From IMG/VR virus record IMGVR_UViG_3300012920_000022, positions 32,001 to 96,000 of that record: a stretch of DNA of 64,000 bases. One strand, given 5' to 3'. Within the stretch, counting starts at the first letter, position 1; each line of letters begins with the position of its first letter. This DNA is from a virus. Of this stretch, positions 1 to 33,761 are shown piece by piece. The notes beneath the pieces are model-generated. The model worked only from the letters and a program-made list of their open reading frames with translations, had not been told where the DNA came from and did not search any database. Position numbers and translations under genes: made by a program.

Positions 1-258
1 GATATTATTTGAATTAAAGGAGGGATATAGATAAAAACTATTCATATATCGTTGTTCGTTTTTGGTCAATTTATTCATAACCATATAATCTTCATTTTCA
101 CAATTAATGTGGTCAATGTAGAAAGTTACATTAAATTTAATATGAGAATCATATGAAACACTTACTATATCATTTATATAACCAATATATCTAAGTGGTT
201 TAGGATCTACATATATTCCCAAAATAACTTTAATTTTTTCTACATGGGGCGATTTCAT
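1..258 (-). CDS. hypothetical protein, runs off the left window edge
   Basis: Hand translation from ATG at 258 (MKSPHVEKIKVILGIYVDPK...) is open to position 1; not in the ORF track. Confidence 0.55.
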   Translation of the reverse strand, partial: MKSPHVEKIKVILGIYVDPKPLRYIGYINDIVSVSYDSHIKFNVTFYIDHINCENEDYMVMNKLTKNEQRYMNSFYLYPSFNSNNI

Positions 259-297
259 AAATGTTCTATACAATATGGTGGGTATAGAATCAATTAT

Positions 298-329
298 GTT
301 ATCCTCGTTATGTATATAACGAGGATAAC
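298..329. terminator. 14-bp hairpin downstream of the purZ-like gene
   Basis: gttatcctcgttat-gtat-ataacgaggataac perfect inverted repeat; no strong U-tract. Confidence 0.5.
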
Positions 330-367
330 GATTTATATCAGCATTGGGTGGAGTAGATGTATATAAC

Positions 368-1615
368 TTAAAATTGTGTGACCCTACTATTTTCATCTAA
401 AAATGTTTTATTATTAAGCAATACCATATCATCGGTATCAGCACCAGTTCCTACATATGATAATATCACATTATCATATGGATTAATATCTCTCATAATC
501 TCATTTAGCCATTCTTTAGATTTGTTAGATAATTCCAAATAATCTGTAACACCTTCATCTTCCCCATTAACATAATTCATAAAGTTAATGGATATATGAA
601 TAGTATGATTAGTCATGTTATGTGCAATGGCACTATGCATATTATCAAATGAGAAATTAAATACTCTTCTCGGTAGCTTGGTTAAGGTTGTAGTTTCCAT
701 AACAGGTCTACCAACATTACTTGATATTTGATCCCAGGTAATTTCTTCCTGATCTTGATATCCTCCACCACTATCACTGTCTATCACTTCATACTCATAT
801 TCATTACTTTGTACCTGATCCCAAGTTAAATGATTACCAGTAACTTTGTCTATATATTTTTTAGAACATATTCTTATGGGATATGTTCTAAAGTTGATTA
901 TAACATCACCCAGATATGAAGGAGGTACCATCATATCATCAAAACCCCCAGCTATGGTGGAATTTCTGGAAGTAGTGTTGGGGTAAAAATCAGAGATTCC
1001 ATAACTCAACTGGAATCCTTGGGGAATTTCCATAACCCCAGATTCTCCTTGGTTCAATCTGCAAATTATATCATGTCCCACGTTACAAAGATATGGCTTT
1101 AACCAATCCACATCTCTTGCCAATAATAAATTAGACTTCCTCATGATTTTCCTGGCTCTTGCAGATCCAGAACCACTACATGTACTACCAGTTTTAATAG
1201 TACCATTGTGTTGTAATTCATTATTCAATAAATTACCTTCAAAATCATGGGTTCCTTTTTCATACCCTATATCTATATCTTGTATTATGGGTGCAAGATA
1301 GTCAATACCAACATCGATACCATTTTTTTCGGCTATTGATATCTCTTCTTTCAATGCTTGTAAATCTATCGCAGATCCATGACCAGCATATACTTTACTA
1401 ACAGAATTTGGTATTACTATAGCTGAGCTTAAATGTTTAAGCACAGTAGTTGTGCCACCAATTACTACTGTATGACTAGCATTGCTAGATCCATTACTAC
1501 AAGCAAAATCAAATTCATGATTTTTAAAAATATAAGAACCAATTTTAGCTTTACCAGATGATCCGGCTCCCCCATCTAATATGGCTAATATTTTACCTTT
1601 TTTTACTATACTCAT
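368..1615 (-). CDS. purZ: PurZ-like N6-succino-2-amino-deoxyadenylate synthetase (adenylosuccinate synthetase family)
   Basis: PurA-fold motifs GSSGKAK, NASHT, GSTCSGSG, QGFQLS, YPNTTSR, RTYPIR, TTLTKLPRRVFNFS, NFMNY. Ser replaces PurA catalytic Asp13, Leu at the Arg303-equivalent, N-F-x-N instead of the T-K-x-D GTP motif. Confidence 0.8.
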   Translation of the reverse strand: MSIVKKGKILAILDGGAGSSGKAKIGSYIFKNHEFDFACSNGSSNASHTVVIGGTTTVLKHLSSAIVIPNSVSKVYAGHGSAIDLQALKEEISIAEKNGIDVGIDYLAPIIQDIDIGYEKGTHDFEGNLLNNELQHNGTIKTGSTCSGSGSARARKIMRKSNLLLARDVDWLKPYLCNVGHDIICRLNQGESGVMEIPQGFQLSYGISDFYPNTTSRNSTIAGGFDDMMVPPSYLGDVIINFRTYPIRICSKKYIDKVTGNHLTWDQVQSNEYEYEVIDSDSGGGYQDQEEITWDQISSNVGRPVMETTTLTKLPRRVFNFSFDNMHSAIAHNMTNHTIHISINFMNYVNGEDEGVTDYLELSNKSKEWLNEIMRDINPYDNVILSYVGTGADTDDMVLLNNKTFLDENSRVTQF

Positions 1616-1649
1616 ATATTACATCATTTTAATTGATATGCTAAATAAT

Positions 1650-1682
1650 AAAAAAGGCACCATACTAAATATGGTGCCTTTT
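1650..1682 (-). terminator. Rho-independent terminator
   Basis: aaaaggcaccata-ctaaa-tatggtgcctttt stem with a T-tract on the minus strand, just after the 1722..2234 gene. Confidence 0.75.
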
Positions 1683-1721
1683 GATTTATAACTTAAAAAC
1701 TATTAATATTAACTATCATGA

Positions 1722-2234
1722 TCAGTGACTAGGTATTGAACCAGTATCACGGAAATCATCGATGAGTTGAGTAAGTTGATCACTATCATATTCTTTAGAA
1801 TCACCATCCATGAATGCAATGTGCAATGTGCCACCATCATCCAAATGCCAATCATCTACAACGCCATCACTGCTATCACTAATTGATTTAACAAAATCCC
1901 CAATTAGTTCATTATATTCATTATGCTCATCAATATAATCTGAGAAACGCGGTATTAATTCTGGTTTATTTTCATTCATATTGAAAAACACTCTGAAATC
2001 ATTGAATCCACCAGCTAATGCAACTTTATCAAGTATTTTTAAAAATTTATCATCAGCTTCACCCACATAATCATCAGTATCGTATATATCATAATCTGGG
2101 TAATCTGCCATATGCTGATTAACTAAATCATTAAACATATGGCTCATTGTATCGCTAATATTATCAGATTTAAATTTACCATCTGGAAGATTAATATTGA
2201 ATATATTAGCGATATCTGATTTGGATATTTTCAT
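1722..2234 (-). CDS. acidic hypothetical protein
   Basis: 170-aa ORF, very Asp-rich, followed by a terminator. Confidence 0.75.
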   Translation of the reverse strand: MKISKSDIANIFNINLPDGKFKSDNISDTMSHMFNDLVNQHMADYPDYDIYDTDDYVGEADDKFLKILDKVALAGGFNDFRVFFNMNENKPELIPRFSDYIDEHNEYNELIGDFVKSISDSSDGVVDDWHLDDGGTLHIAFMDGDSKEYDSDQLTQLIDDFRDTGSIPSH

Positions 2235-2295
2235 GAGTTCTTAATATTTTTGATAAAAATAATAACCATATAACATACACTTGGTTATATGAAAT

Positions 2296-2631
2296 TTATT
2301 GATTCAATAGTCTATCATCGCTTTCTCTGTTCCCAACTACCGCAGTAGATGCATCATCCCCACACAATACTCCAAGTATGCTGTGATATTTGATAATCAA
2401 ATACTCAGTATTGTTAACATTAGCATAAGTACCACCCATTTGACTAATAAGTACTCTATCACCCACGGACAATTCACAATTCTCAATATTAGGATCTATA
2501 GCCGCAACTACACCACTGTTTTGTCTGTTATGTTTTCTAGTGTCTATTTCAAAAACTATACCAGATTTAGTTTCAGTAACTACTCTATCCTCAATTATAA
2601 ATACATTATTCTTAATGGGTTCCATACACAC
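2296..2631 (-). CDS. groES: co-chaperonin GroES/Cpn10
   Basis: EPIKNNVFI, TKSGIV mobile loop, GVVAAI, VGDRVL...GGT, EYLIIKYHSILGV. Confidence 0.88.
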   Translation of the reverse strand: MCMEPIKNNVFIIEDRVVTETKSGIVFEIDTRKHNRQNSGVVAAIDPNIENCELSVGDRVLISQMGGTYANVNNTEYLIIKYHSILGVLCGDDASTAVVGNRESDDRLLNQ

Positions 2632-2830
2632 TATTACATTTATTAAATATTGTTGTTACATCATTTTTAGATACATTATTCAATATAATGGAATCACTAC
2701 CATTTAACACTGATAATTTTGTACCATCGGGTGATAACATGTATTTTTTATTCAATATGGTTATAACATAAGATTCATTATGTAATGATACATTGTTTTT
2801 AGTTATACCATTGAGTATTTTAGATACCAT
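2612..2830 (-). CDS. hypothetical protein
   Basis: 72-aa ORF tightly packed in the minus-strand operon. Confidence 0.6.
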   Translation of the reverse strand: MVSKILNGITKNNVSLHNESYVITILNKKYMLSPDGTKLSVLNGSDSIILNNVSKNDVTTIFNKCNSVYGTH

Positions 2831-2831
2831 A

Positions 2832-3788
2832 TTATTCAGATAATAATAATTGTATATTTATATTTATATCGCTGCTATTAAAAATCTCCAAAAATAGAAA
2901 TTTTTTACATTTATTAAAAGACTGTATAGTTAATGAATCACATATTTGATATTTAAGTGCAGATATAGTTGAATAATCCGCAATAAGATTGAATGATGGA
3001 TAGCCCTCGCTCAATGTGGAAGTGGTGTTAAATTCACCATATAATGTACCATTATGTTCACCACTAATATTGACTACTGCATTGGAATATTCCAAAGAAC
3101 TATTTTCTACATTCAACTCATCTATATCAAAAACCAGATTTAACTGAACATTTGCCTCATGGCAACCAACACACATGTATATAAGTTTGCTGATATCACA
3201 TTTTCCACCAACTATATCACAACTAATCTTACCAGATGATTCAAAATTTGGTAAAACCCAGTGGTCATTATACCCAAAATCAGTGAAAGTCTTCCAGGTA
3301 TAATGGGACATATGGTTCCACGAAGATCTATATTCACCATCTATAAGTTGAGTTTCTATATTATCCCAAGTAACATCTTGTAATAATTTATTATTTCTAT
3401 TCAAACTCAGAGTATAATTAAAAAATACATTATTACAAGATATTTTTTCTATTGATATATTTAACTCAAACTCATATCTAATTGCATAATATCTAATAAA
3501 ATTATCATCAATTAGATTATATTCAAAACTGGTTTCAGATAACATCGCTATAAATGCTATATTGTCGGTGGATAAATCCAGAGTATATAAACTATCAGGT
3601 TTAACAATTATTTTTTTATAATCTATTACTTCTGAATTTCTAAAATATCTTGATAAATCTATATATGGAGATTTATCATATACCAATTGGTTATCAGAGA
3701 AATATAGTTGTTTTCTCTGACTATCCAGACTACAATTAAAATCTATACCGTTACTGTTAACATTTGTGTTATCTGATTTAATCATCAT
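2832..3788 (-). CDS. putative virion structural protein with a Trp/acidic repeat
   Basis: 318 aa; ATAAATAA box upstream (3808-3815, minus); TWDN..SSWNH..TWKT spaced-Trp motif shared with 36729 and 44676. Confidence 0.55.
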   Translation of the reverse strand: MMIKSDNTNVNSNGIDFNCSLDSQRKQLYFSDNQLVYDKSPYIDLSRYFRNSEVIDYKKIIVKPDSLYTLDLSTDNIAFIAMLSETSFEYNLIDDNFIRYYAIRYEFELNISIEKISCNNVFFNYTLSLNRNNKLLQDVTWDNIETQLIDGEYRSSWNHMSHYTWKTFTDFGYNDHWVLPNFESSGKISCDIVGGKCDISKLIYMCVGCHEANVQLNLVFDIDELNVENSSLEYSNAVVNISGEHNGTLYGEFNTTSTLSEGYPSFNLIADYSTISALKYQICDSLTIQSFNKCKKFLFLEIFNSSDININIQLLLSE

Positions 3789-3807
3789 TGATTAGGTGTG
3801 ATATACG

Positions 3808-3930
3808 TTATTTATTCTGATGTCTTTTAGAGAGAATTAATATGGCTTTAAATCCCGCAAATAAGAACATGGCAGTAAAAGGTATACCAAATATCACCAT
3901 AATATCATATATTAGCTTTGGATCTATCAT
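3808..3930 (-). CDS. small single-pass membrane protein (40 aa)
   Basis: Hand translation MIDPKLIYDIMVIFGIPFTAMFLFAGFKAILILSKRHQNK; start overlaps the stop of the upstream gene (TGATG). Confidence 0.55.
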   Translation of the reverse strand: MIDPKLIYDIMVIFGIPFTAMFLFAGFKAILILSKRHQNK

Positions 3931-4466
3931 CATTGATTGGGTGTGATACCATATGAATTATTTATCTCTCCCATATTCACACTATTTTCATCACTAAGAT
4001 ATTTCTGCAATGATTTTGATATTAATAGTGATATCAAAGGTATCGGTAATCCCATTATTATGGATAATAGGAACACATGACCATTACTGCTCAATGGATC
4101 AGCTATGGGACTAATTATGGTATCTATTATCTGGCTAAAATGGGATATATATTTACTGTTATCATCAATTTTATACTTAGTATATGAATATATGAAATAT
4201 ATGTTACCGAATATTTGGGTAAACAAAACTATATAAAATATAGACCAGACATAGGTTCTCTGAAGTCTACCCATAATTGATATGGCAAGTATAACAAATA
4301 TATTAATAATCTCATAGGTTATAGACATTAATATGGCAACCCAAAGATAATTACCCAAAGATAAAAATTTTATCATATGGATAAATGATATTACAGATGA
4401 TAATATGGGTATAGATAGATAAACCCATATTATCATCTGTCTAGTATTCTGTTTTTTGATGTTCAT
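3930..4466 (-). CDS. multi-pass (about 4 TM) membrane protein
   Basis: Four long hydrophobic segments. Confidence 0.75.
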   Translation of the reverse strand: MNIKKQNTRQMIIWVYLSIPILSSVISFIHMIKFLSLGNYLWVAILMSITYEIINIFVILAISIMGRLQRTYVWSIFYIVLFTQIFGNIYFIYSYTKYKIDDNSKYISHFSQIIDTIISPIADPLSSNGHVFLLSIIMGLPIPLISLLISKSLQKYLSDENSVNMGEINNSYGITPNQ

Positions 4467-4795
4467 ATCACCAATTTTGGTAATTTTAAAGATTTATTGG
4501 ATAAATCTGTGAGTGAAAACATTGGATATCCTTTAAAATCAATAAACTGTATTGGATATCTCATCAGATAAATGAACCAATGTTTACCGATTTGTTCAGT
4601 GTAAAATTCACTTATTAAATTATCACCAATAATATTATTGATTTTATCTAGATTATCGATATGACCTTGTTCATCATATCCATCACCGTCAACAAAAATC
4701 TCTATTGAATATAGACCTGCTTTTCTGTGGATGGTGATATCTGTATCATGATCCAGGAACAAATTTTTAATATCAATTAGATTTATGTCATTCAT
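4463..4795 (-). CDS. hypothetical protein
   Basis: 110-aa ORF, ATGA overlap with the next gene. Confidence 0.7.
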   Translation of the reverse strand: MNDINLIDIKNLFLDHDTDITIHRKAGLYSIEIFVDGDGYDEQGHIDNLDKINNIIGDNLISEFYTEQIGKHWFIYLMRYPIQFIDFKGYPMFSLTDLSNKSLKLPKLVI

Positions 4796-4804
4796 ATGTC
4801 ATAA

Positions 4805-5221
4805 TTAAAATATGGATTTAATAATAAAATAAATTGATGCTATAATTGTTGCATCAATAATAATAAATATGAGCAATTTTATTTTATTGATAGGGAATAT
4901 TGGGACATATTTTATCAATATTTTATGATCACCTTGATCATTATTATCATCCACGTATACATAATCATTCAATCTCACTAAACCTATCAATGATGCACGA
5001 ATAATATATTCGTGCATCATTGATAGGTAATTATTAAGTATATCCACATGCTTATCAACTGGTTTGTCATGGTTTATGGTATAAACAGAATAAATCATAC
5101 CAAATATATCGAAATTCCACCCATAGAATGAACCATAATCATGATCTTCAGCGCATATTATAAGTGAATTCCTAGCATGCCAATATAGCATAAAAGATTT
5201 TATAAAATAAAATATAGTCAT
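4805..5221 (-). CDS. hypothetical protein with C-terminal TM anchor
   Basis: 138 aa, hydrophobic C-terminus; overlaps the nrdJ stop. Confidence 0.7.
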   Translation of the reverse strand: MTIFYFIKSFMLYWHARNSLIICAEDHDYGSFYGWNFDIFGMIYSVYTINHDKPVDKHVDILNNYLSMMHEYIIRASLIGLVRLNDYVYVDDNNDQGDHKILIKYVPIFPINKIKLLIFIIIDATIIASIYFIIKSIF

Positions 5222-7230
5222 ATTATATCACAATAACCGCCAACACAGGCTAACTCATTTATTAATTCAGTATTATCACCATATTCCTTAATTAAGCTAA
5301 AATCAATATCAACCAACATAGATTTCAATCTATCATACTCAGTTTTGTCTATTTTGGCTAATGGGGCTTGATTATATGGCTCACGATTTAATGGTAGTAT
5401 GGTTATTCCAGAATAATAGTCTCGATTCTGCCATAACCAAGATTTAACAGAACCCCATTCACTATCAACATAAACAGTAGCTGATACATTATTAGTGTTT
5501 TTACCACTTCTATGACCAGCACACACCCATTCTGAATAAAAAAACTTTATTCTGTTCAAAGTATCTAGTGGTGATTCATGGGATATTCCATCAATGGTGT
5601 TGGGTGATACCATTGGATAATAGAAAATTGCAGTAGCTGATGGATTTATCATACAATCTTCTATTAAATCCGGCATAGAATTTAATAGTACATCATATAT
5701 TGGTAAATGCTTTTTTATTCTAATGGCTCTCTTAATATATTTGGAGTATGGTTCGTGAATACCAGAACCAGTAAGACCAGCCATTAATGTGGTTGTACCT
5801 TCGGGTTTTATGCAGGTGGTTCTAGAAGCTCTATTTATACCCAATATATCAGATATTCTGTCATTTTCTTCATTAACTACTCTAGCAGCATCACCGACAT
5901 TAAGCGACATTACATTACCATTACATATGCCAGTCATAGACACTCCTATCAAATATTCACTCTCAGTTATATTTTTCCAGTTTTTCCTTATGTAGTGGAA
6001 GGAGGTAAATCCGGCTTGTAGAGTTCCAAAAAAACTAGCTACCTTGGCACGATCATTTAATTCTTTTTGGGTTAGATTATCACCAACATTAATGGTAGTT
6101 AAATTACAAAATTGACCACCATTATTAGAAGTTAGGGATATTTCTCCACATGGATTAGTACCAATAGATATATCATTAGTCCAAAATATTCCAGGTTCAC
6201 CATACCCAGAATCTTTCATCATATCAAAATAATTATCAAACTCATTTTTGGTAACTTCACCTCTTATAAACACACCACTATTATTTGATCTGCTTCGTTG
6301 GGGATGAACTAAATACCAATGTATTTTTTTAGTTTTTTTAATTTGATCAAATGACTCTTTGGTAATATTTAATGTCAGACAATCACTATATGGTCTACTA
6401 TGGTGATTGTCTGACATAATTAAACGACATGAAAATAAGCCATCTGATAATTTACCACATATTTCTATGGATTTTACGTCTAGCATATATTTAGACTTCA
6501 CCATATTTATGTCATCTCTATCGAACAATGAAATCATAGCAGCTTCCCTAACGCCACCAGAATATATGCATTCAGCAATAAAGCAACATATGTCATGAAC
6601 TTCCAAAGTTGTTAATTTTCTACCAACTGCATTGCGTAAAACACCATCAACATGGGTCAAGGTTTTTTCCAAAGGTTCATATCCAGGTGATATGCCACCG
6701 GATTTTGTTATTGGTGATCCTTTAGCCCTAATATCACTATAATCAAATATGGGATAACTATTACCAAACATATATGATTTTATTAGGTACTTAAGACCAT
6801 CAGACCATCCCTCAATGGAATCTTGAACTAAATATCTAATGCTACTATCTGGTTGTTTTATGATCGGAAGTTGATTTACATGGTATGATTGCACACTATA
6901 GCCAACACCAACACCACACAATAATAAAAACATAATCTCATTAAATGATTTATAACTATCAATAGCTATATATGAGCAATTATAGATTTTTATAGGGTTA
7001 ATCTCTATCGGTAATCCGGAAAATTGCAACCCTCTCATGGACGGAAAAACTTTATTTTCATATAGATATTTGCCATTTCTATCTATATCATCAGACAGCA
7101 TAGGATATTTCCGTTTCATCATATCTATATAAGATGAAACGACCTCTGTGTGTGTTTGTCTTCTTCCTTTATTGGCATCATATGATGCATACTTCATGTA
7201 ATTGATTAAATTGGGGAGTAATTCTGACAT
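5218..7230 (-). CDS. nrdJ: class II (B12-dependent) ribonucleotide reductase
   Basis: PSMRGLQF, YNCSY, LLCGVGVGYSV, GTNPCGEI, FCNLT, CIKPEGT, C-terminal LACVGGYCDI redox pair. Confidence 0.9.
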   Translation of the reverse strand: MSELLPNLINYMKYASYDANKGRRQTHTEVVSSYIDMMKRKYPMLSDDIDRNGKYLYENKVFPSMRGLQFSGLPIEINPIKIYNCSYIAIDSYKSFNEIMFLLLCGVGVGYSVQSYHVNQLPIIKQPDSSIRYLVQDSIEGWSDGLKYLIKSYMFGNSYPIFDYSDIRAKGSPITKSGGISPGYEPLEKTLTHVDGVLRNAVGRKLTTLEVHDICCFIAECIYSGGVREAAMISLFDRDDINMVKSKYMLDVKSIEICGKLSDGLFSCRLIMSDNHHSRPYSDCLTLNITKESFDQIKKTKKIHWYLVHPQRSRSNNSGVFIRGEVTKNEFDNYFDMMKDSGYGEPGIFWTNDISIGTNPCGEISLTSNNGGQFCNLTTINVGDNLTQKELNDRAKVASFFGTLQAGFTSFHYIRKNWKNITESEYLIGVSMTGICNGNVMSLNVGDAARVVNEENDRISDILGINRASRTTCIKPEGTTTLMAGLTGSGIHEPYSKYIKRAIRIKKHLPIYDVLLNSMPDLIEDCMINPSATAIFYYPMVSPNTIDGISHESPLDTLNRIKFFYSEWVCAGHRSGKNTNNVSATVYVDSEWGSVKSWLWQNRDYYSGITILPLNREPYNQAPLAKIDKTEYDRLKSMLVDIDFSLIKEYGDNTELINELACVGGYCDII

Positions 7231-7305
7231 ATACGGTAAATTTTATTTGCTCACAATCATTTTTCTTTATCTATCACACAGATAAAGAAATTTAATAATG
7301 AATAG

Positions 7306-7662
7306 CTAATCTTCTACAAATTTTGGTATATAGCCTTTATCACTCCAATGATCAATTAATTTCAAATATGGTAAAATGAATTCATTGTGATACAAATCCT
7401 CCAGAGGTTTTTCAGCTATCTTGGCTATTGAGTCTTTTACTTTATCCCAGTTATCAGCATGAGAAATATGTATATTCCACCCAACCAAATCAAACCAGCT
7501 TTGCCATCCACTACCCAGTGCTTCTTCAATAGGCAATGTATTAATATCAATAGGCATGGCATATTCCTTTTGTTTAATAGGCACATTCCAAAATTCTGCA
7601 GATTCTTTATCCAAATCGTTTAATGAAATTGGCTCATTGTTAAATAAAATTTGAAATCCCAT
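7306..7662 (-). CDS. hypothetical protein
   Basis: 118-aa ORF. Confidence 0.7.
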   Translation of the reverse strand: MGFQILFNNEPISLNDLDKESAEFWNVPIKQKEYAMPIDINTLPIEEALGSGWQSWFDLVGWNIHISHADNWDKVKDSIAKIAEKPLEDLYHNEFILPYLKLIDHWSDKGYIPKFVED

Positions 7663-7858
7663 TTTGTTATATCGTTTTGATGAATTAAAAACATAGATAT
7701 AGTGGATAATGAACAGTGGTTACAATATTATTAAGCAATTATTAAGCAATATTATAGTAACCCAATATTGTAACCAATACTATGTTTTGTGGAGGGAAAA
7801 GAAAAGCCGAATGATGTTTAAAGGGTGGGTGGTTTGGGAGTATGGAATACCATTACTG

Positions 7859-7866
7859 ATAAATAA
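7859..7866 (+). promoter_or_regulatory. T4-like late promoter box (ATAAATAA)
   Basis: About 20 nt upstream of the baseplate gene. The same or similar box precedes 3788(-), 11731, 13983(-), 14044, 31226(-), 36729, 44676 and 54494(-); a GATATATAA variant precedes 18131 and 61109(-). Confidence 0.55.
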
Positions 7867-7886
7867 TCAAAATACTATAAGATCAT

Positions 7887-8651
7887 ATGATTGTACCTGT
7901 TGATAGATCATTCAAAAATACTAATAAAGACTATGTTGGTTTGGTCAAATCCATTGATGTTGATAATCAACAAGGTATATGTAAAATACTTGTTTATGGA
8001 ATTTTTAGTGATCAGATACCCATAGATAAGCTTCCAAATGCTTATCCTATTTATGACTTATCTTTTAATGATACTGGATCTGGTAGATTAATAGTACCAA
8101 AAATTGGGTCTAAAGTTAAGGTTAGATTTGATGGATCAATATATGAACCCAGATATTTTGGTGTAGAAGAACAAGATAATTCATCTACAATCAATAGTTC
8201 TTCATATGAAAATTCTAAATTGTTATTACAAGATGATTCTCAGAATCTATCCATATCATATAATGCTAACGATGGTATTTTTATTAAACACAATGATTCA
8301 TATTTTGTTATTAAACCAGATGGGTCAATAACATTAAATCATGTTAATAGTACCTCCACCATCCAATTAAAGGGTAACGATATAGATATTAACAGCAATG
8401 CCAATGTAGTGATTTCATCTACTAGTCAAGTTACTGTAAATTCAAATAATGTCCATGTTAATGGTTCTACCACTGATATTGGATCTAATCCCATATATAG
8501 TTCAGTTAATGGTGAGCCAATATTTGAACTATTAAATCTATTAGCTACAATAATTGACGCTAAATATCCTAGTAGTCCTGGAACTACCACATCAATCGTC
8601 GGTCAAATGAGAAATTTGATATTGAGTAATACAGTTAAAACATCTCCCTAA
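7887..8651 (+). CDS. baseplate hub/spike protein (gp5/VgrG OB-fold plus beta-repeat)
   Basis: YVGLVKSID..QGICKILVYG, VPKIGSKVKVRFDG..YEPRY OB-fold followed by beta-strand repeats. Confidence 0.75.
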   Translation: MIVPVDRSFKNTNKDYVGLVKSIDVDNQQGICKILVYGIFSDQIPIDKLPNAYPIYDLSFNDTGSGRLIVPKIGSKVKVRFDGSIYEPRYFGVEEQDNSSTINSSSYENSKLLLQDDSQNLSISYNANDGIFIKHNDSYFVIKPDGSITLNHVNSTSTIQLKGNDIDINSNANVVISSTSQVTVNSNNVHVNGSTTDIGSNPIYSSVNGEPIFELLNLLATIIDAKYPSSPGTTTSIVGQMRNLILSNTVKTSP

Positions 8652-8652
8652 T

Positions 8653-10119
8653 ATGGATATAAAAGATTTGATTAATAATATACCAAACTATGATTCTGCT
8701 AATCTATTAAAGATCATAGAAGATGCTAAAAATTTATCATATGATGATTGTGTGGATAGACCCAGTATTAACAAAATTACTGATGATTGTGTGGATACTG
8801 GAAGTTTATCTGAGTTTAAATTACCAACCATTGATTTAGGCAACATCATACAAAATGAGTTATCACAATGTCAATCACAATGCTTTAGCAATATCAAATC
8901 ACAGATAGATTCATTTGATACAAATATTGGTGATAACATTATGAAATTTTATGAACTTAATAGAATTTTCTATTTGTTTGTGATTCAATCATTTATAGAT
9001 TTATCATTAATAGTGTTAAATGGTGGATCTGGTGATGAAATTAAAAATACGTTTGCTAAGCTATTTCAATATATAGATGGTGGTGATAGATATATTGAAA
9101 TATTAAATAGTGTTATTAATACAAATGATGATCAACCTACCAATAGTTTTGATATTTCTAATATTATTTCTAATATATATGAATTGTTACCAGCAAACTA
9201 TGAATTAAATGATGATTTATCTATATTAGAGGGTAATGAGCAATTTGATGGCTCAATTAGTAATCCTTTGTATCATCAATTTATAGATTTTATGGGCGAT
9301 ATTGATATTAGCAAATTCAATGACATAAAGGATTTTTATAAATCTAAGATAAATGGTTTTGATCTGTTTCTTGGTAAGGTTTTTTCGTTGGGAACTACAA
9401 TATCCAACTATATAATTAATGAGAATTTTTCTATATCACCCATTGGTAAAGATTTTTCAGAATTCATTAATAAATTCACTAATCTATATGGTGAATTTAT
9501 TAATGTGTTTTCACTCACAATGCTTGATGAGACTACATTTGAATGTTGTGGTAACAATGAAATATCAATATCACAAGATCAATTATTGATAAACCAAACT
9601 GAAGATATTAATTTTAATTCCATACCTGATGATAGTATACCTGAAATTACTGAATTGGATTATTGGAAAAAATATTCTACTATCATAAATACTATAAATT
9701 TATTTCCACAATATTGGTCTAAGGGTTTCCCGACTCCCACTGGATTTGTGAATTTTCCCACGATATGGATACCATTATTAGCAATACCATTATTTGGTAA
9801 ATTATTTGTTGTGTTTATTACTATTAATGGAATTTTGATTAGTCCAGTTGTGTGGGAACTGTCCATGGATGGATCTCAGGATGTAAGCAGGTTTACATTG
9901 ATACTTAAAAATAGTGGTGAAATAATAAGTAATGTAACTAAAACCATATCCGATATTAATGTAATTGATGGTATAGACATTGATCCTATTCAATCGCTTT
10001 CTGTTGGATACATCAAGGATGATTTGCCCACATATAATAGGATCAGTTTAAATAATGCCAATTTAATTAAGTATATCAATGAATGGCTATTAGTTAGCTC
10101 TAAAAGTTTGGGCATTTAA
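8653..10119 (+). CDS. putative baseplate-associated structural protein
   Basis: 488 aa, coupled to the gp5-like gene; acidic, N/I-rich. Confidence 0.55.
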   Translation: MDIKDLINNIPNYDSANLLKIIEDAKNLSYDDCVDRPSINKITDDCVDTGSLSEFKLPTIDLGNIIQNELSQCQSQCFSNIKSQIDSFDTNIGDNIMKFYELNRIFYLFVIQSFIDLSLIVLNGGSGDEIKNTFAKLFQYIDGGDRYIEILNSVINTNDDQPTNSFDISNIISNIYELLPANYELNDDLSILEGNEQFDGSISNPLYHQFIDFMGDIDISKFNDIKDFYKSKINGFDLFLGKVFSLGTTISNYIINENFSISPIGKDFSEFINKFTNLYGEFINVFSLTMLDETTFECCGNNEISISQDQLLINQTEDINFNSIPDDSIPEITELDYWKKYSTIINTINLFPQYWSKGFPTPTGFVNFPTIWIPLLAIPLFGKLFVVFITINGILISPVVWELSMDGSQDVSRFTLILKNSGEIISNVTKTISDINVIDGIDIDPIQSLSVGYIKDDLPTYNRISLNNANLIKYINEWLLVSSKSLGI

Positions 10120-10122
10120 ATT

Positions 10123-10482
10123 ATGAATAAACAAATCAAAAAACTATTATCAACTGATGCTTATGATAAACATGAAATCAGTAAACTCATAGATGAAAAA
10201 TGTGATTTTACCACATTATTTCCTGGTGATAAATTGAGAATTCACTGGGATGTTAGTTTGAATGAAATTAAAATACATGATTTATGTTATGTTATTTCAT
10301 TACCCCACATGGAACCCACCCCGTTTAACTTTATATTACATTTCCCAATTCATGTTAATAGTGGTATGGATGAGAAGTCAATCAATCAATGGTTCCATAT
10401 TTATGAATTATTATCTGATCCCACGATTATTAAACTAACTAAGCTTGATGATGAAGATGATGAATATATGGGCGCATTATAG
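10123..10482 (+). CDS. hypothetical protein
   Basis: 119-aa ORF in operon. Confidence 0.65.
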   Translation: MNKQIKKLLSTDAYDKHEISKLIDEKCDFTTLFPGDKLRIHWDVSLNEIKIHDLCYVISLPHMEPTPFNFILHFPIHVNSGMDEKSINQWFHIYELLSDPTIIKLTKLDDEDDEYMGAL

Positions 10483-10704
10483 ATCGTCATGTTTTATTAT
10501 ATGCGTATCTTTGTTTTCATCTATTAATATTATGTCATTTTCAGATATACCATAATAATCAATTAATTCTACCATGCATCTTTTATTAGATTTTTTGGTG
10601 TTTTTATTGAAGACCATATTATATATATCAATTGCATTGTTATCCAATACTTTTAATTCATGAATACTCGATAAATTAAAAGGTATATATGTTAATTTAC
10701 TCAT
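10477..10704 (-). CDS. hypothetical protein
   Basis: 75-aa ORF filling the gap between plus-strand genes. Confidence 0.5.
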   Translation of the reverse strand: MSKLTYIPFNLSSIHELKVLDNNAIDIYNMVFNKNTKKSNKRCMVELIDYYGISENDIILIDENKDTHIIKHDDL

Positions 10705-10745
10705 ATATTATGTAACGTAATTGTAAACTTATTCATAAGTTATAT

Positions 10746-11426
10746 ATGAATAAGTTTATGATCATAAAAGATATTGAAGAAACTAGCAACTATATTTCTA
10801 GTGTGAAAAATCAATTTATAAACTATGCCAAATCCATAGGGTTTGATGTAATATTTTTTGATGGTGATGGTGTAGTGTATATAGATGGCGTTGCATTGAA
10901 ATGCACCATAGGGAAAACATACTTATTCATAGATAATTCTAACTGGTTCAATAATCCTATTAAGACCCAAATAAAATATAATACCCATCTTAATAATCGC
11001 AAATATAAATCTAAATTGGAATGGATTTATAAAACAACACTATTAAAGCAAAAGATATCTGTGGATTTTGATAATAGGTCAAGATATTTAAATATTTTAT
11101 CATCCGTAATTCAATCAATAGAACATTGGGGTGGGATATCTGGATATGAAATAATTGATGGAGGTGCATTAATATTCATATCAACTGGTGAATATTCTGT
11201 TGAATTACTATTGAAATATCCCAGTATGCTTTATGAAATATATATCACTGAGATTTTTGGAACCATCTTTAATAATCCTCTAAAATCTAGTAACGATTTT
11301 AAGTTAATATATGGTAGTATTAAAAAATTAGAGAAATCTATATTTTTAATATATTCAGCTATATGTTATAAAATTAAAGACCATGAGGACAATATATCTG
11401 AGCATACCCTATTACTTGAGGAATAA
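10746..11426 (+). CDS. hypothetical protein
   Basis: 226-aa ORF. Confidence 0.7.
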   Translation: MNKFMIIKDIEETSNYISSVKNQFINYAKSIGFDVIFFDGDGVVYIDGVALKCTIGKTYLFIDNSNWFNNPIKTQIKYNTHLNNRKYKSKLEWIYKTTLLKQKISVDFDNRSRYLNILSSVIQSIEHWGGISGYEIIDGGALIFISTGEYSVELLLKYPSMLYEIYITEIFGTIFNNPLKSSNDFKLIYGSIKKLEKSIFLIYSAICYKIKDHEDNISEHTLLLEE

Positions 11427-11718
11427 TATCAAGATCATAAACATACACGATAGACTATCGCTACATTTTAATATTATAAACCCATATCATATACCTTGGT
11501 TTAGCCACAAAACTCATATGGATATGATATTAAATTCAGATGCTATAGTATATCTGGGTGATAATGATTCTGTTACATTTGGTTGCTATAAAGAGATATT
11601 GATGTATTCTAAATTTGGCAAAACAAAAAAGATATTTGATAGTAAATTAAGGATATCAAAAATTTCACTTAAACCAAAATATAATAGATTAGATACTGCA
11701 ATATTAATTAACATATAA
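11383..11718 (+). CDS. nucleoside 2-deoxyribosyltransferase-like small protein
   Basis: IYLSIPY...INPY...D.ILNSDAIVYL...S..GCYKEI pattern resembling NDT/DUF1937/DUF4406 folds. Confidence 0.4.
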   Translation: MRTIYLSIPYYLRNNIKIINIHDRLSLHFNIINPYHIPWFSHKTHMDMILNSDAIVYLGDNDSVTFGCYKEILMYSKFGKTKKIFDSKLRISKISLKPKYNRLDTAILINI

Positions 11719-11730
11719 ATAATAACAAGG

Positions 11731-12429
11731 ATGACCATTAACAAGGATGATTTGGAAAGTGAGGTATTAGATTTAATAGTTTCCAATAACCCAGATAATA
11801 TTGATAAGGCTTTTCATATTTTACAAAATAATAAAGAATTAATAAACGAAGTTTTATTACCTTTATTACCCAATTACCCATACTATTGTGCGAAATATTG
11901 TATATGTAATGATTTAGTATATTCATTAACACTTCTCGATGATAGTTTTCCAGATTATTTGTTTAATTTACATAACCTTATTAGTATATCAATATATGAA
12001 AGAGGCACAATTAACACATCACTTGACTTTGTGAATAAGTTTCCTAAATTAGAATTTTTGGGTTTAAAGAATTTTGTATTTAGTAAATTTCCCAGATGCC
12101 TGTTTGATCATCCAAATCTTAAAGCCATAGATTTTTCTAATACCAATATATCTGAATTTAATTTTAGATTATCTAAAATTAATACCAATATTGTGTATAT
12201 TAATTTAGATAATACCAATTTAACAGAATTACCAAAATTTTTGTTTGATATTATCCATCTTAGTGAGTTGGATATACACAATAATCCTAATGTAAAATTA
12301 GATGGATTTGATAAATTACATGGATTGGTATCTCTGGGTGTTATTAATTGTGGAATAAATGATATACCTGCGTATATTAATTTACCACCTAGTTTTAAAA
12401 AGCTAAAATTAGGTAATAATTGTTATTAA
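11731..12429 (+). CDS. LRR protein (divergent family member 1)
   Basis: Cap DLIVSNNPDNIDKAF...YPYYCAKY followed by LxxLxLxxN repeats. Confidence 0.85.
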   Translation: MTINKDDLESEVLDLIVSNNPDNIDKAFHILQNNKELINEVLLPLLPNYPYYCAKYCICNDLVYSLTLLDDSFPDYLFNLHNLISISIYERGTINTSLDFVNKFPKLEFLGLKNFVFSKFPRCLFDHPNLKAIDFSNTNISEFNFRLSKINTNIVYINLDNTNLTELPKFLFDIIHLSELDIHNNPNVKLDGFDKLHGLVSLGVINCGINDIPAYINLPPSFKKLKLGNNCY

Positions 12430-12430
12430 C

Positions 12431-13237
12431 ATGAATAGATTTTCTGGTCATAAAAATAAACTATGTAGTTCTTATTCATTGAATAGATATTATAAACTAT
12501 ACCCCATATCTGATCCTGTAACTGATTTGGGGATACCAAAAGTTTCATTCTCATCATTAAAATACTGGCTAACTACGTTTGGTCTGGTTAATAGTGATTA
12601 TTCTCCCAATTTTTTATATGATAAATTGATGGAAAAAGATCCTGAATTTTTAAATTGTGATACTTATGCATTGATTCATCATAATATGATTGTTAATTCC
12701 AGATCAATATTATACTATGAGATGTTTTCTGAGTTTATACCAACTAAGATAGATCATTTTACCACCAATCATCTACTTAGGTTTATTATCAACAAATATG
12801 GTAACGATAGCAATTATAATACTATTGCTAATGATATTAATATGGCATTAAAATTATACATTGATAACTCATCCCCATTTGATGATAAATTTACCATGAG
12901 TCAACTTAGATTATTAATAATTGATTACATTGATGAAGATAAGATTAATTATTTCAAGATGAACCCATATGTTAATTTATCTTTGAATATTATGCTATAT
13001 GCTATTATATGTCTTTGGGGTGGTAAAAGTATCATATCATTAAAGGAATATTTTAAATCACCATATTCTCCACACATAATATATGGGTTAAATATAGACA
13101 AATCTATGTCTCTATTAACCGAATTATCTAATAAATATAATGGTATAATTATAATTAACCCCCATGATAGGACTATCACCATAAATACTAGTCTGACTTG
13201 TAAAGATATGTTAATTAAATATTTGTGGGATAATTAG
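12431..13237 (+). CDS. DUF4007 (SspB-like) domain protein, degenerate
   Basis: N-terminal FSGH, DLGIPK..SLKYWL..FGL and DPEF..DTYALIHH match the remembered DUF4007 pattern FSGHETF / LGVGKNMV.SIRYWL / DPYLE..TLWLLH. Confidence 0.65.
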   Translation: MNRFSGHKNKLCSSYSLNRYYKLYPISDPVTDLGIPKVSFSSLKYWLTTFGLVNSDYSPNFLYDKLMEKDPEFLNCDTYALIHHNMIVNSRSILYYEMFSEFIPTKIDHFTTNHLLRFIINKYGNDSNYNTIANDINMALKLYIDNSSPFDDKFTMSQLRLLIIDYIDEDKINYFKMNPYVNLSLNIMLYAIICLWGGKSIISLKEYFKSPYSPHIIYGLNIDKSMSLLTELSNKYNGIIIINPHDRTITINTSLTCKDMLIKYLWDN

Positions 13238-13983
13238 AATATAAAATCTCCATCTTGAGACATAAAAGGAGTATTACTGTTCTCTTCCATTTTCTTCTCC
13301 ACTTTGTCTATTTTTTTCTCCCCGCTATCTTTGATAACATTCCAATCTATTTCATATCCCCCAGGTAATTTTTGCTTGACTAATGCGTTTTGCTTATACA
13401 TGTCGATTTCACCAGTACCAATTACATATCGTTGGAAATCATAATTATCAAACAAAGACTCTTCATCTATATCTATATAACAAGTTGCCACTAAATCAAC
13501 TTGAAAATTTCTACCTTGTATTGTTAAATTTTTGGTATATGAATTATAATCAAATGCTACTGTTTTTATTATTGCAGAATCTAAAAAATCTTGGTATGAA
13601 TCTATTGCTATTGTATATACCAGATCTTCTGGTGATGTTCTGGTACCAATATATCTACCTGTATTACCTTTTCTGTAGTCCAAATCCTTGCTACTACTAA
13701 AGATTCCTCTACCACCAACTTCTGATAATCCGTATACATTCCTGGTGCACTTTGGCATTTTTATGTTTCTTCTGTTATTATTCTTGAAATCTTTGGTATT
13801 CATTGCTTTTGTGGGTATGATCATATATACAGATTCATTGGCTACTTCTGTCCAATTATCCCTAAACATTTCAAGAGTATCATCTATTATGTTATCTATG
13901 GCTTTACTGGTTAGATTTACTGGTATACCACATCCCTGGCTTATCCTTGATTTTATGAAACTTACGAAACTCAATCTATCCAT
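13234..13983 (-). CDS. neck/head-completion protein (T4 gp13-like)
   Basis: IPVNLTSKAIDNIIDDTLEMF, FDYNSYTKNLTI, YVIG, LPGGYEIDW...GEKKI pattern; late box upstream. Confidence 0.65.
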   Translation of the reverse strand: MDRLSFVSFIKSRISQGCGIPVNLTSKAIDNIIDDTLEMFRDNWTEVANESVYMIIPTKAMNTKDFKNNNRRNIKMPKCTRNVYGLSEVGGRGIFSSSKDLDYRKGNTGRYIGTRTSPEDLVYTIAIDSYQDFLDSAIIKTVAFDYNSYTKNLTIQGRNFQVDLVATCYIDIDEESLFDNYDFQRYVIGTGEIDMYKQNALVKQKLPGGYEIDWNVIKDSGEKKIDKVEKKMEENSNTPFMSQDGDFIF

Positions 13984-13986
13984 TAT

Positions 13987-14042
13987 TAACTCTCCTTTTT
14001 TGTTATTTATTTTGTGGGATAAATAACAAAAAAGGAGAGTTA
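13987..14042. repeat. 24-bp perfect inverted repeat forming mirror leaders of divergent genes
   Basis: taactctccttttttgttatttat-tttgtggg-ataaataacaaaaaaggagagtta. Confidence 0.9.
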
Positions 14043-14043
14043 C

Positions 14044-15054: not shown

Positions 15055-15443
15055 TTGTTGTGGACGCTGACAGTATGTCTACATATCTATTAGGGAAATA
15101 TGTAAATCATGTTGGAGACGAATTATCAATTAAAGTTGAATTCATCCCATTCCATAATATAGATGATGCATTCAACTATCTTACTAAATATGTTCCCAAC
15201 ATATTATTTATAGATCCCACAGACCCATCTAATTTCACATCATCAAACAAAACTGGGTGGGATATGTTAGATAAGTTACCGGATGGTATAATACCACCAT
15301 GTAAGGCATATATATTTACTTCTTATGAATATGGTCATGATTATGTTAGAGCTGAAACTCATGATAAGATTACTGGGTGTGTATTAAAACCATTGGATGT
15401 TGATGTGTTGACAAAGATCATAAAAGACTGTCAATCTGTTTAG
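15030..15443 (+). CDS. single-domain response regulator (CheY-like receiver)
   Basis: VVVDAD, ILFID phospho-Asp, GWDML, FTS, KPL. Confidence 0.85.
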   Translation: MGEYDIKLVVVDADSMSTYLLGKYVNHVGDELSIKVEFIPFHNIDDAFNYLTKYVPNILFIDPTDPSNFTSSNKTGWDMLDKLPDGIIPPCKAYIFTSYEYGHDYVRAETHDKITGCVLKPLDVDVLTKIIKDCQSV

Positions 15444-15447
15444 AATC

Positions 15448-15505
15448 ATATGACAATATGTCATATTGGATGAATTGGCACGATTTTTGTAATATTTTAT
15501 GTAAA
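15448..15505 (+). promoter_or_regulatory. composite promoter copy 1: TGACA-N3-TGTCA plus sigma54-like -24/-12 box
   Basis: ATATGACA-ATA-TGTCATAT then TGGCACGATTTTTGTAATATTTTATGTAAA (GG-N10-GT). Confidence 0.8.
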
Positions 15506-15516
15506 AGATTCTTATT

Positions 15517-32212: not shown

Positions 32213-32482
32213 ATGGGTGTAAAATCTTGCCATAGAAATAATTGTATTAGTATAATGTGTGATACATACATAAGTGATGGTGATGTAGGATATGTGTGTA
32301 CCGATTGTAAACAAGAGTTTAAAGATTACATGAAAAACATTACCAATAAATTTGATAGCTCATTTGGTGAAATATTAGGTGAACTAAAAAAATTTATGGA
32401 AACTCCTGCTGGTACCTATGCTGCTGGAGAACCCATGGATGTTGATCGTTTTTTTGAAAATTTTGAAGACCATGAAAATTAA
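32213..32482 (+). CDS. small Cys-rich (putative Zn-binding) protein
   Basis: CHRNNC...MCD and VCTDC motifs. Confidence 0.65.
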   Translation: MGVKSCHRNNCISIMCDTYISDGDVGYVCTDCKQEFKDYMKNITNKFDSSFGEILGELKKFMETPAGTYAAGEPMDVDRFFENFEDHEN

Positions 32483-33761
32483 CAATATGGAGCTATATTT
32501 CAATGATTATTATAAAGACACAATTAATAAAATAGAAAACACTAATATAAACATGGTTATATTGGGTTATGCGGGTTCTGGAAAATCAACCCTGTTAAAC
32601 TATATTGTTAATAGATCAGCAAAATCTTATATTGTAGTTGCTCCCACTGGGGTTGCTGCTGTAAATGTTGATGGGGTCACCATGCACAGCCTATTTAAAT
32701 TCCCATTATCAGTTATATTAGCTAGTGGTGTCAAAGATTTAAAGGGTACTTCATCCGAAGAAGCCCTATTAAATTGTGATACTATAATCATAGATGAAAT
32801 TGGTATGGTAAGAGCAGATCTATTGGATGGTGTTGACATATCACTAAGAAAATTAACTAAAAATGACTCCCCATTTGGTGGTAAACAATTAGTAGCATTT
32901 GGTGATGTTAGTCAACTACCACCAGTTGTAACTGATGAAGAATCTGACATCATGGATATGATGTATAATAGCCCATATTTTTTTGATTCTAATTGTGCTT
33001 GGAATTATAAGTTTTCTTATAAATTGTTAAAACATAATTATAGACAATCCGATGATAAACTCTTTATGGAAATACTTAATAGGATGAGAACAGGTAAAAC
33101 CACTCATGAAGACATTATAACAATTAATGATAATTGTTATAAGTCAGTGGATATTGATGATAAGTTTATACCATATTTATGTTCTACCAACAGGCTTGCT
33201 AATTCTATAAATGATAAAAAATTATCAGAAGTTGACCAGCCTTGCTTTGTATATGAAGCATATATCGAAGGTAATTTCAATCCCAAGAGTTCACCAGCAC
33301 CTGAAATACTCATATTAAAAAAAGGTGCCAAAGTTATGCTACTCAATAATACTAGTAGTTGGTCCAATGGTACAATGGGTGTTATAAGCCATTTAGATTC
33401 AGATACCATATTTGTAGAAACTAATGATGGGGAATATGAAATTGGCAAATCTGAATGGAGTACCAGAAGCTATAGTTATGGTAGTGGTAGAGTATTTACT
33501 AGTATAGAAGGAACTATGAAACAATATCCCATAAAGTTGGCATATGCAAACACCATCCATAAATGTCAGGGTAAACAATTTGATAACATAATTTTGGATT
33601 TATCAAGTAGGTTATTTACACATGGTCATTTGTATGTTGCTCTATCCAGATGCACTACTATGAATGGTGTTTACTTAACTAGACCCATAAAGAAATCTGA
33701 TATAACTGTTGATAAAGTTATCATTAATTTTATGAAGGACGTATATAAAGGTAATATATAA
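32472..33761 (+). CDS. PIF1/RecD-like SF1B helicase
   Basis: GYAGSGKS, APTGVAA, IIDEIGM, PFGGKQL..FGD..QLPPV, QYPIKLAYANTIHKCQG, YVALSR; likely start MKINN at 32472. Confidence 0.92.
   Translation: MKINNMELYFNDYYKDTINKIENTNINMVILGYAGSGKSTLLNYIVNRSAKSYIVVAPTGVAAVNVDGVTMHSLFKFPLSVILASGVKDLKGTSSEEALLNCDTIIIDEIGMVRADLLDGVDISLRKLTKNDSPFGGKQLVAFGDVSQLPPVVTDEESDIMDMMYNSPYFFDSNCAWNYKFSYKLLKHNYRQSDDKLFMEILNRMRTGKTTHEDIITINDNCYKSVDIDDKFIPYLCSTNRLANSINDKKLSEVDQPCFVYEAYIEGNFNPKSSPAPEILILKKGAKVMLLNNTSSWSNGTMGVISHLDSDTIFVETNDGEYEIGKSEWSTRSYSYGSGRVFTSIEGTMKQYPIKLAYANTIHKCQGKQFDNIILDLSSRLFTHGHLYVALSRCTTMNGVYLTRPIKKSDITVDKVIINFMKDVYKGNI

Follow-up and report, generated by a model that had tools for sequence, protein, structure and literature searches.

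The Z-genome phages characterised so far, in which 2-aminoadenine (Z) takes the place of adenine, belong to the small sipho- and podoviruses. They depend on the host for adenylosuccinate lyase (PurB) and GMP kinase, and their compact DatZ-MazZ-PurZ cluster is accompanied by DpoZ or PrimPol. The S-2L paper describes datZ, mazZ and purZ as always co-conserved. According to one paper, PurZ homology alone has led to predictions of dZ-DNA in over 2000 viruses, so a bare PurZ homologue in a metagenomic phage is not new. Here, we describe a purZ-like gene (ORF 368..1615, where ORF denotes open reading frame) in a stretch of viral DNA of 64,000 nucleotides, hereafter the window, which comprises bases 32001–96000 of a single 135,755-bp linear contig whose G+C content (GC) is 28.3% and whose CheckV completeness is 55% (IMG/VR record IMGVR_UViG_3300012920_000022). 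The 73 ORFs in the window and 101 ORFs outside it were scanned with Pfam and PHROG, using an ORF caller that accepted ATG starts only. The homology, key residues, tree position, fold and gene co-occurrence observed for this gene are those of a PurZ-group enzyme and, judged from sequence, it belongs to a distinct and hitherto uncharacterised large-phage subfamily. We consider it probable that the enzyme makes succino-aminodeoxyadenylate (dSMP) and that Z enters the phage DNA by way of a self-contained pathway to the Z deoxynucleoside triphosphate (dZTP), with a new PurZ subfamily in T4-like phages.

Family placement and active site of the PurZ-like protein

The original prediction, made from the letters of the window, had read this ORF as PurZ-type rather than PurA-type on the strength of three motifs, and key residues, tree position and fold bear it out. 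GSSGKAK (G18–K24, with S19 and S20), TKLPRR (T312–R317) and NFMNY (N344–Y348) are all present. The substitutions had originally been counted against E. coli PurA; the reference used here was instead a bacterial PurA from an Acinetobacter contig (L014), in which S19 is aligned under the Asp of the P-loop GDEGKG, L314 under the Arg of GASTGR, and NFMNY under TKLDV. Key residues were then read in phiVC8 numbering from an alignment of 127 sequences. Positions S14, T262, F295, Y298, W252, Y244 and P233 of phiVC8 PurZ are retained as S19, T309, F345, Y348, W294, Y286 and P246, respectively, all of which appear in the metaGPA preprint as residues separating PurZ (dZ-enriched contigs) from PurA. T15 of phiVC8 corresponds to S20, and F12 to A17, with Ala in 17 of the 21 family rows. 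The nucleotide-base site reads N-F-M-N-Y, compared with N-F-C/A-N-Y in the phiVC8, Acinetobacter phage and Burkholderia phage PurZ proteins, S-F-A-D-Q (Ghobes) or T-M-L-D-Q (Preamble) in PurZ0, and T-K-L-D-V in bacterial PurA; the N-F-x-N-Y pattern thus marks a PurZ (ATP) site rather than a PurZ0 site. F345 and Y348, the equivalents of the adenine-stacking F295 and Y298, replace the guanine-specific (T/N)KxD. The Leu of TKLPRR aligns with K267 in phiVC8, with Leu in the Acinetobacter (Barton) and Klebsiella phage PurZ proteins, and with Arg in bacterial PurA.

Profile and structure searches agree with this assignment in part. The Pfam match is to PF00709 (E 7.6e-15) and involves the N-terminal part alone, while the PHROG match is to PHROG 1211, the family that also holds phiVC8 PurZ. 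Every PurA model in NCBIfam scored the protein far under its cut-off, including the archaeal-type PurA model NF003295 (144.8 bits, cut-off 368). Searching the PDB sequences returned the phiVC8 enzyme first (6FM1, 6FKO, 6TNH; E ~1e-25), the Pyrococcus horikoshii PurA second (E 8e-23) and S-2L PurZ third (7ODX; E 3e-17). An AlphaFold2 model built on a 40-row family alignment (predicted local distance difference test 92.5, predicted template modelling score 0.91) was compared with the PDB using Foldseek. The top matches were the phiVC8 'deoxyguanylosuccinate synthase' with ATP and dGMP (6FM1, 6TNH, 6FKO; template modelling score (TM) 0.85–0.86 by target, root-mean-square deviation 2.6), and next in order came P. 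horikoshii PurA (TM 0.86–0.89 by target), S-2L PurZ and PurZ0. The predicted fold confirms a short-type synthetase and, taken alone, does not separate PurZ from archaeal PurA. No second adenylosuccinate-synthetase homologue was found on the contig.

A word-indexed search resulted in 164 homologues at E <= 1e-5. The best 120 of these 164, the window's own protein included, are mostly ~400–480 aa long with 37–64% identity, and many lie on contigs of 100–385 kb; an identical protein was also found on a contig of 182,191 bp. The P-loop pattern among the best 120 was GSS in 97, GST in 1 and unmatched in 22, eight of which are present in the 40-row alignment and have GSSAKG or GSSSKG. Invariant in that alignment are S19, S20, K22, H48, T312, R316, R317, N344, F345, N347 and W294. 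A full HMMER search of 1.84 billion representatives returned 1425 sequences at E <= 0.001, 79 of them at E <= 1e-30. In the best 150 of the 1425, the P-loop pattern was found in 131, all with Ser (two with Gly) at the Asp position of PurA and none with GDEGKG; the remaining 19, many of them fragments, did not match the pattern. An alignment-based scan of IMG/VR identified 45 related loci/records on contigs of up to 436 kb (8 of the 45 records are >=90% complete), compared with 1 locus when the single protein was used. Scanning GTDB genomes with the family alignment gave 11 loci, all on contigs of metagenome-assembled genomes that provide no host clue; given so few loci, and every one on such a contig, we regard the family as essentially viral. 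Megablast of window positions 1–20000 against 50,697 phage records gave no match. The closest isolate is the Flavobacterium phage MaF61 (PQ858689), a cultured myovirus with a complete genome of 167.8 kb, whose ORF141, annotated as 'putative adenosuccinate synthetase', shares 37% identity with the PurZ-like protein. The main text of the paper describing MaF61 contains none of the terms adenylosuccinate, adenosuccinate, aminoadenine and restriction, and six relevant terms are likewise absent from an Archives of Virology 2025 paper on a large aquatic phage lineage.

The comparison with PurA, PurZ and PurZ0 that the original prediction had called for was made with FastTree (127 rows) and with IQ-TREE (58 rows hand-picked from the 127, the other 69 being left out; LG+G4; support as ultrafast bootstrap/SH-aLRT), and the two trees agree. 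In the IQ-TREE phylogeny, a split supported at 100/99 separates the Asp-type PurA proteins (four long and two archaeal short) from all Ser-type rows, the PurZ-like protein among the latter. Both archaeal short PurA proteins (L082 and L083) score above the NF003295 cut-off and have the P-loop GDEGKG. The large-phage family (17 rows, including the PurZ-like protein and MaF61) and the known PurZ proteins (4 rows) are each monophyletic at 100/99, and PurZ0 branches close to the base of the Ser clade; IQ-TREE leaves the branching order of the large-phage family relative to known PurZ unresolved. More distant Ser-type relatives (L049–L061; 26–32% identity) are found on IMG/VR contigs of 43–436 kb. 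Nine of these 13 loci are on records with a family-A polymerase match, including four contigs of 300–436 kb. Searches for PurB, the kinase and the HD protein discussed below found almost nothing in them, the exception being a single weak match to PurB, and these loci seem to represent another large-phage setting of PurZ-group genes, distinct from the first.

Compared with phiVC8 PurZ, the protein shares the short adenylosuccinate-synthetase fold, the P-loop Ser, T262, W252, Y244, P233, the N-F-x-N-Y ATP site, membership of PHROG 1211, and its side of the 100/99 split from Asp-type PurA. It differs in having only 28% identity, a length of 415 aa versus 343 aa, an insertion of ~30 aa (roughly residues 250–279), a C-terminal extension, GSSGKA and Ala where phiVC8 has GSTGKG and F12, and a separate clade (100/99); phiVC8 itself is a ~40-kb phage with DpoZ, whereas the PurZ-like gene lies in a large T4-like phage with a family-B polymerase and no adjoining DatZ or MazZ. 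PurZ0 (Arthrobacter and Gordonia phages; PDB 7VF6; accompanied by DutZ, DmtZ and DUF5664) also has a Ser-type P-loop, and a Nucleic Acids Research 2026 article (NAR 2026) defines a wider 'PurZ group' that would include both; unlike the PurZ-like protein, however, PurZ0 has Glu after the Ser (GSEAKG), keeps Asp at the nucleotide-base site and branches near the base of the Ser clade. The short PurA of P. horikoshii (PDB 5K7X/2D7U; NF003295) is the closest Asp-type relative in sequence and fold, whereas the archaeal short PurA proteins in the tree lie across the 100/99 branch. MaF61 ORF141 belongs to the same large-phage clade, but to a different sub-branch and with Phe at the F12 position. Two assignments were rejected on these data: canonical PurA, as Ser replaces Asp13 of GDEGKG, NFMNY replaces TKLD and the PurA models score far under their cut-offs, and PurZ0, as the P-loop is GSSGKA and not GSE(A/G)KG, the Asp at the nucleotide-base site is not retained, and dUTPase and nucleoside deoxyribosyltransferase (NDT) were found in 0 of 5 T4-like records.

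Purine-pathway genes on the contig and in its relatives

Outside the window, the contig encodes a PurB, a guanylate kinase, a MazG-like pyrophosphatase and a YfbR/Dmp-like HD hydrolase (Table 1), and with these genes the rest of the contig supports the PurZ reading more than the original prediction expected. In the known pathway, as described in the metaGPA preprint, the steps after PurZ are carried out by the host PurB and GMP kinase, whereas here PurB and guanylate kinase are phage genes. The true PurB start is probably earlier or non-ATG, because an in-frame PurB-like N-terminal stretch continues 5' of the ATG. The fumarate-lyase signature of the phage PurB is deviant, reading GDSSMPHKTD where GSSxMPxKxN is usual. 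For the MazG-like protein, a search of PDB sequences gave nothing at E <= 1, and a BLASTP alignment with S-2L MazZ (E 0.013) showed E34, E35, E38, E50, D53 and R83 to be conserved. The ESM Atlas neighbours of the HD protein are YfbR-like/HD_3 proteins, a word-indexed homologue search with it returned itself alone, and its BLASTP match to S-2L DatZ (E 4e-4) covers the HD motif only. Like the S-2L Z-cluster (DatZ-MazZ-PurZ, PrimPol), then, the contig has a PurZ-type synthase, a MazG-family pyrophosphatase with the catalytic Glu/Asp residues and R83, and an HD-superfamily hydrolase, but the genes that are adjacent in S-2L are dispersed here. The original prediction had proposed searching the rest of the genome for DatZ, MazZ and the polymerase; a MazG-like enzyme, an HD hydrolase and a family-B polymerase were indeed recovered, while the HD protein proved not to be a DatZ orthologue and the MazG to be without I56/D60.

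Co-occurrence was examined in 46–47 records with a relative of the purZ-like gene, which are mostly fragments, so that the counts are lower bounds. PurB was found in 6/46 records, guanylate kinase in 8/47, the contig's own MazG protein in 10/47, its own HD protein in 4/47 (own contig included) and family-B polymerase in 8/47; family-A polymerase was found in 18/47, among them 6 of the 8 near-complete ones. The Pfam MazG model, searched in six frames, also matched 10/47 records, a tally that is an underestimate because the contig's own MazG is missed by it. Four records combine PurB, the kinase and the HD protein, namely this contig, G014, G025 (129 kb, with terminal repeats and rated complete) and MaF61, and each of the four has a family-B polymerase; MaF61 also has a weak MazG match. 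Large relatives with a family-A polymerase are mostly without PurB, the kinase and the HD protein. These three genes are therefore a module of the T4-like subgroup rather than of the PurZ-like family as a whole. In a tblastn search, PurB matched 4 of 50,697 phage records, and MaF61, which also carries the purZ-like gene, is the only genuine phage among them. The other matches are one 1,440-bp unannotated fragment and two 'Acinetobacter phage MD-2021a' contigs, which we take to be bacterial DNA because a sister contig of the same assembly carries hisZ-purA. Guanylate kinase matched 106 phage records and is thus less specific than PurB. A phage-encoded lyase plus kinase fits a dZTP pathway and is otherwise almost unknown in phages.

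T4-like context and neighbouring genes

The phage had originally been described as very AT-rich, T4-like and jumbo. The GC content across the whole contig agrees with the first description, and the second is upheld by a T4 portal (gp20; E 2.5e-56), a Gp23 capsid protein, UvsX and a clamp loader, all encoded outside the window; further T4-type genes on the contig encode a gp41-like helicase, RNase H, a gp2-like end protector and an SbcCD-like nuclease. Jumbo size is not shown, as the linear contig of 135,755 bp is 55% complete and the identical protein lies on a contig of 182,191 bp. The gp32-, gp61- and UvsW-like genes named in the original prediction match PHROGs annotated 'single strand DNA binding protein', 'DNA primase' and 'DNA helicase' (positions 18984–23913), and their products would have to cope with modified DNA. 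The implied gp43-type replicase was located on the contig as a gp43-like family-B polymerase that is split into two genes, 34 kb apart and on opposite strands, and no match to family-A polymerase (PF00476) was found on the contig, which is 55% complete. The statement that the window lacks datZ and mazZ holds for all 73 window ORFs scanned.

Table 1. Features of the window and of the surrounding contig (positions in window or contig numbering, as indicated)
Feature	Numbering	Position	Strand	Match or remark
PurZ-type succino-aminodeoxyadenylate synthase candidate	window	368..1615	-	415 aa, ATG start; large-phage subfamily; P-loop GSSGKA, TKLPRR, NFMNY
Terminator-like hairpin	window	1652..1682	-	14-bp stem, then T run; between upstream ORF (1722-2234, -) and purZ-like start
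GroES/Cpn10 co-chaperonin	window	2296-2625	-	PF00166, E 8.7e-13; 0.7 kb upstream of purZ-like gene
Ribonucleotide reductase	window	5218..7230	-	PHROG 367, E 4.8e-101; weak class II insertion domain match
DUF4007 protein	window	12431-13237	+	E 1.7e-20
DUF932 protein	window	16028-17020	+	E 2.3e-54
gp32-like single-strand DNA-binding protein	window	18984-20345	+	PHROG
gp61-like primase	window	20345-21454	+	PHROG
UvsW-like superfamily 2 helicase	window	22339-23913	+	PHROG
Dda/PIF1-like helicase	window	32418..33761	+	Pfam/PHROG scan, context
Leucine-rich-repeat paralogues	window	31334-32125, 34255-36059, 39643-40500, 41632-44644, 55293-57850		Pfam/PHROG
Leucine-rich-repeat paralogues outside the window (examples)	contig	11-340, 7814-8668, 126818-127288, 132723-133643
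Family-B polymerase, exonuclease/N-terminal gene and palm/C-terminal gene	contig	96490-97944 and 131541-132719	+ and -	PHROGs 2062, 1918
Adenylosuccinate lyase (PurB)	contig	104925-106157	-	PDB adenylosuccinate lyases, down to E 3e-58
DNA methyltransferases N6_Mtase, N6_N4_Mtase and D12 Dam-like	contig	108454-109344, 112456-113286, 121429-122244	all -
YfbR/Dmp-like HD hydrolase	contig	116189-116914	-	PHROG 318 'deoxyribonucleoside 5' monophosphate phosphatase', E 1.4e-32
MazG-like pyrophosphatase	contig	134460-134996	-	PHROG 229, E 6e-23; 11-nt overlap with kinase gene
Guanylate kinase	contig	134986-135513	-	E 2e-17

The hairpin in front of the purZ-like gene points away from simple co-transcription with the genes preceding it; the terminator scan used the consensus only and found 5 such sites in 8 kb versus 2.2 expected. 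A sigma-70 consensus scan performed no better than shuffles (62 sites versus 69.3). The leader 5' of the purZ-like ATG (window 1600–1640, minus strand) is purely A/T-rich, with no Shine-Dalgarno-like sequence seen. Because this sequence is missing and the host of the nearest isolate is Flavobacterium, a Bacteroidota-type host is weakly hinted at. The ribonucleotide reductase gene is on the same strand as the purZ-like gene, 3.6 kb upstream, and is at most context for deoxynucleotide supply. No tRNA genes were found in the window. At least 11 window ORFs and at least five elsewhere on the contig match Pfam LRR_8/LRR_14 and PHROG 6688 and make up a large, expanded set of leucine-rich-repeat paralogues.

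Candidate dZTP pathway and competing explanations

In the pathway that we propose, which assigns substrates and the direction of flux from homology, the PurZ-like enzyme would convert dGMP, Asp and ATP to dSMP, the phage adenylosuccinate lyase would release the Z deoxynucleoside monophosphate (dZMP), the phage guanylate kinase would form the diphosphate (dZDP) and the host nucleoside diphosphate kinase would form dZTP, which the split gp43-like family-B polymerase would incorporate. The MazG-like pyrophosphatase is a candidate for providing dGMP from dGTP, with breakdown of dATP as a possible second role, and the HD hydrolase is a candidate drain of dAMP or dATP. Together, the two could exclude dATP, with MazG taking dATP and dGTP to the monophosphates and the Dmp-like HD protein removing dAMP, which would agree with the 'functional convergence' reported for PurZ0 phages.

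Several observations weigh against this proposal. The PurZ-like protein scores 129.4 bits on the NCBIfam PurZ model NF038379, under the cut-off of 300, and is thus outside the range of that curated model; moreover, the archaeal-type PurA model scores it slightly higher. F12, which belongs to the 2-amino-group pocket, is Ala. The guanine-specifying I56/D60 of MazZ are W/N in the phage MazG (BLASTP E 0.013). DatZ identity was ruled out for the HD protein: DatZ of phiVC8 matches PHROG 7076 (E 4e-75) and PHROG 318 only at E 7e-5, the HD protein shows the reverse, and the DatZ specificity residues W20/I22 are not kept, being aligned to Q/V in a weak alignment. A contiguous datZ-mazZ-purZ cluster is missing, the candidate genes lying 72–100 kb apart (MazG 100 kb and HD 83 kb from the purZ-like gene). 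The replicase is a split family-B polymerase rather than DpoZ (family A) or PrimPol, with no family-A match on the ~55%-complete contig. Five T4-like records, including the complete MaF61 and G025, yielded neither phiVC8-type DatZ nor DUF550 (PF04447) in searches made without a positive control, nor the dUTPase (DutZ-like) and NDT (DmtZ-like) enzymes. Of the eight records rated >=90% complete, just one matches PurB, and the same count of 1/8 holds for the kinase, the HD protein and the Pfam MazG model, while the contig's own MazG matches 2/8. MazG, kinase and HD genes are also weak evidence by themselves because they are found in phages with ordinary DNA. Finally, the three methyltransferases on the contig would be partly redundant with Z. 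According to the S-2L paper, E. coli Dam and EcoRI methylase act on Z-containing sites in vitro, less efficiently, and since Dam methylates such sites, the methyltransferase genes do not contradict Z. Site counts over the whole contig, relative to a maximum-order Markov expectation, point both ways. GGCC (0 versus 55.7 expected) and GGATCC (0 versus 17.8 expected) are absent and GATC is at 0.68 of its expectation (z = -9.7), a pattern of strong site avoidance presumably driven by host restriction; the lack of any G/C-only GGCC site would fit protection that covers A/T positions alone, whereas the persisting deficit of GATC argues the opposite.

A full replacement of A by Z throughout the T4-like lineage with family-B polymerases, MaF61 included, is a possibility that we raise tentatively: genomes of ~70% A+T would be served by a self-encoded PurZ-PurB-guanylate kinase route and by a dATP exclusion unrelated to DatZ, DUF550, DutZ and DmtZ, for which the MazG-like enzyme and the Dmp/YfbR-like HD hydrolase are the candidates, and no Z-specialised polymerase of a known type would be involved. 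That dSMP and dZMP are made and, lacking efficient exclusion of dATP, both bases are incorporated, so that the DNA is partly Z or the Z nucleotides disturb host pools or defences, seems rather unlikely to us, even though it would account for the failure to find DatZ, DUF550, DutZ and DmtZ in the five T4-like records (two complete), for the Dmp type of the HD protein, and for the under-representation of GATC and other A/T-containing palindromes alongside three retained methyltransferases, as expected of DNA still exposed at A/T-containing sites. Against such a partial role, natural dZ-DNA is described as complete substitution and PurZ0 phages are reported to reach the same end with unrelated enzymes; the latter makes an unrecognised exclusion route through MazG and HD plausible. 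In S-2L, moreover, an unselective PrimPol together with pool control reportedly suffices.

Two further explanations place the enzyme outside Z synthesis or alter its product. The synthetase and lyase could form an auxiliary PurA/PurB pair that turns IMP/dIMP into AMP/dAMP and boosts dATP for a genome of 72% A+T, a demand in keeping with the low GC content; PurB serves both pathways, NF003295 scores slightly over the PurZ model, and the predicted fold is equally near that of P. horikoshii PurA. We nevertheless judge this ordinary supply role improbable: the 40-row alignment has Ser throughout at the Asp position of GDEGKG, NFMNY replaces the guanine-specifying TKLD, the tree separates the protein from Asp-type PurA, and AMP would be expected to call for an adenylate kinase, whereas a guanylate kinase is encoded. 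A shifted substrate or product, for instance use of GMP with later reduction by the phage reductase, or use of another 6-oxopurine nucleotide, would yield a 6-aminated purine other than dZMP or dZMP made by another route. The Ala for F12, the Ser for T15, the insertion at ~250–279 and the C-terminal extension could alter specificity, the deviant PurB signature and the reductase upstream on the same strand are compatible with such a shift, and S-2L PurZ is reported to show no structural selection on the 2'-OH. On the other hand, S14, T262, W252 and Y244 are retained, the Acinetobacter-phage PurZ (Barton) likewise has Leu where phiVC8 has K267, the MazG gene adjoining the kinase gene fits a deoxy route, and there is no positive evidence for another substrate; we regard this explanation as highly improbable.

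We therefore retain as the probable reading that the PurZ-like enzyme makes dSMP and that Z enters the phage DNA. The literature searched, which did not extend to subscription papers or to the NAR 2026 supplements (these may list large phages), yielded no account of a T4-like phage with PurZ or of a PurB encoded by a phage. As MaF61 is in culture, whether and how far Z is present in the virion DNA of this group can be tested directly. If the proposal is true, Z-DNA reaches T4-like phages with a gp43-type replisome, the entire branch from dGMP to dZDP can be virus-encoded, and there is another, unrecognised way of keeping dATP out. Z would then make up about one third of all bases of so AT-rich a genome, altering its melting behaviour and its sensitivity to restriction.

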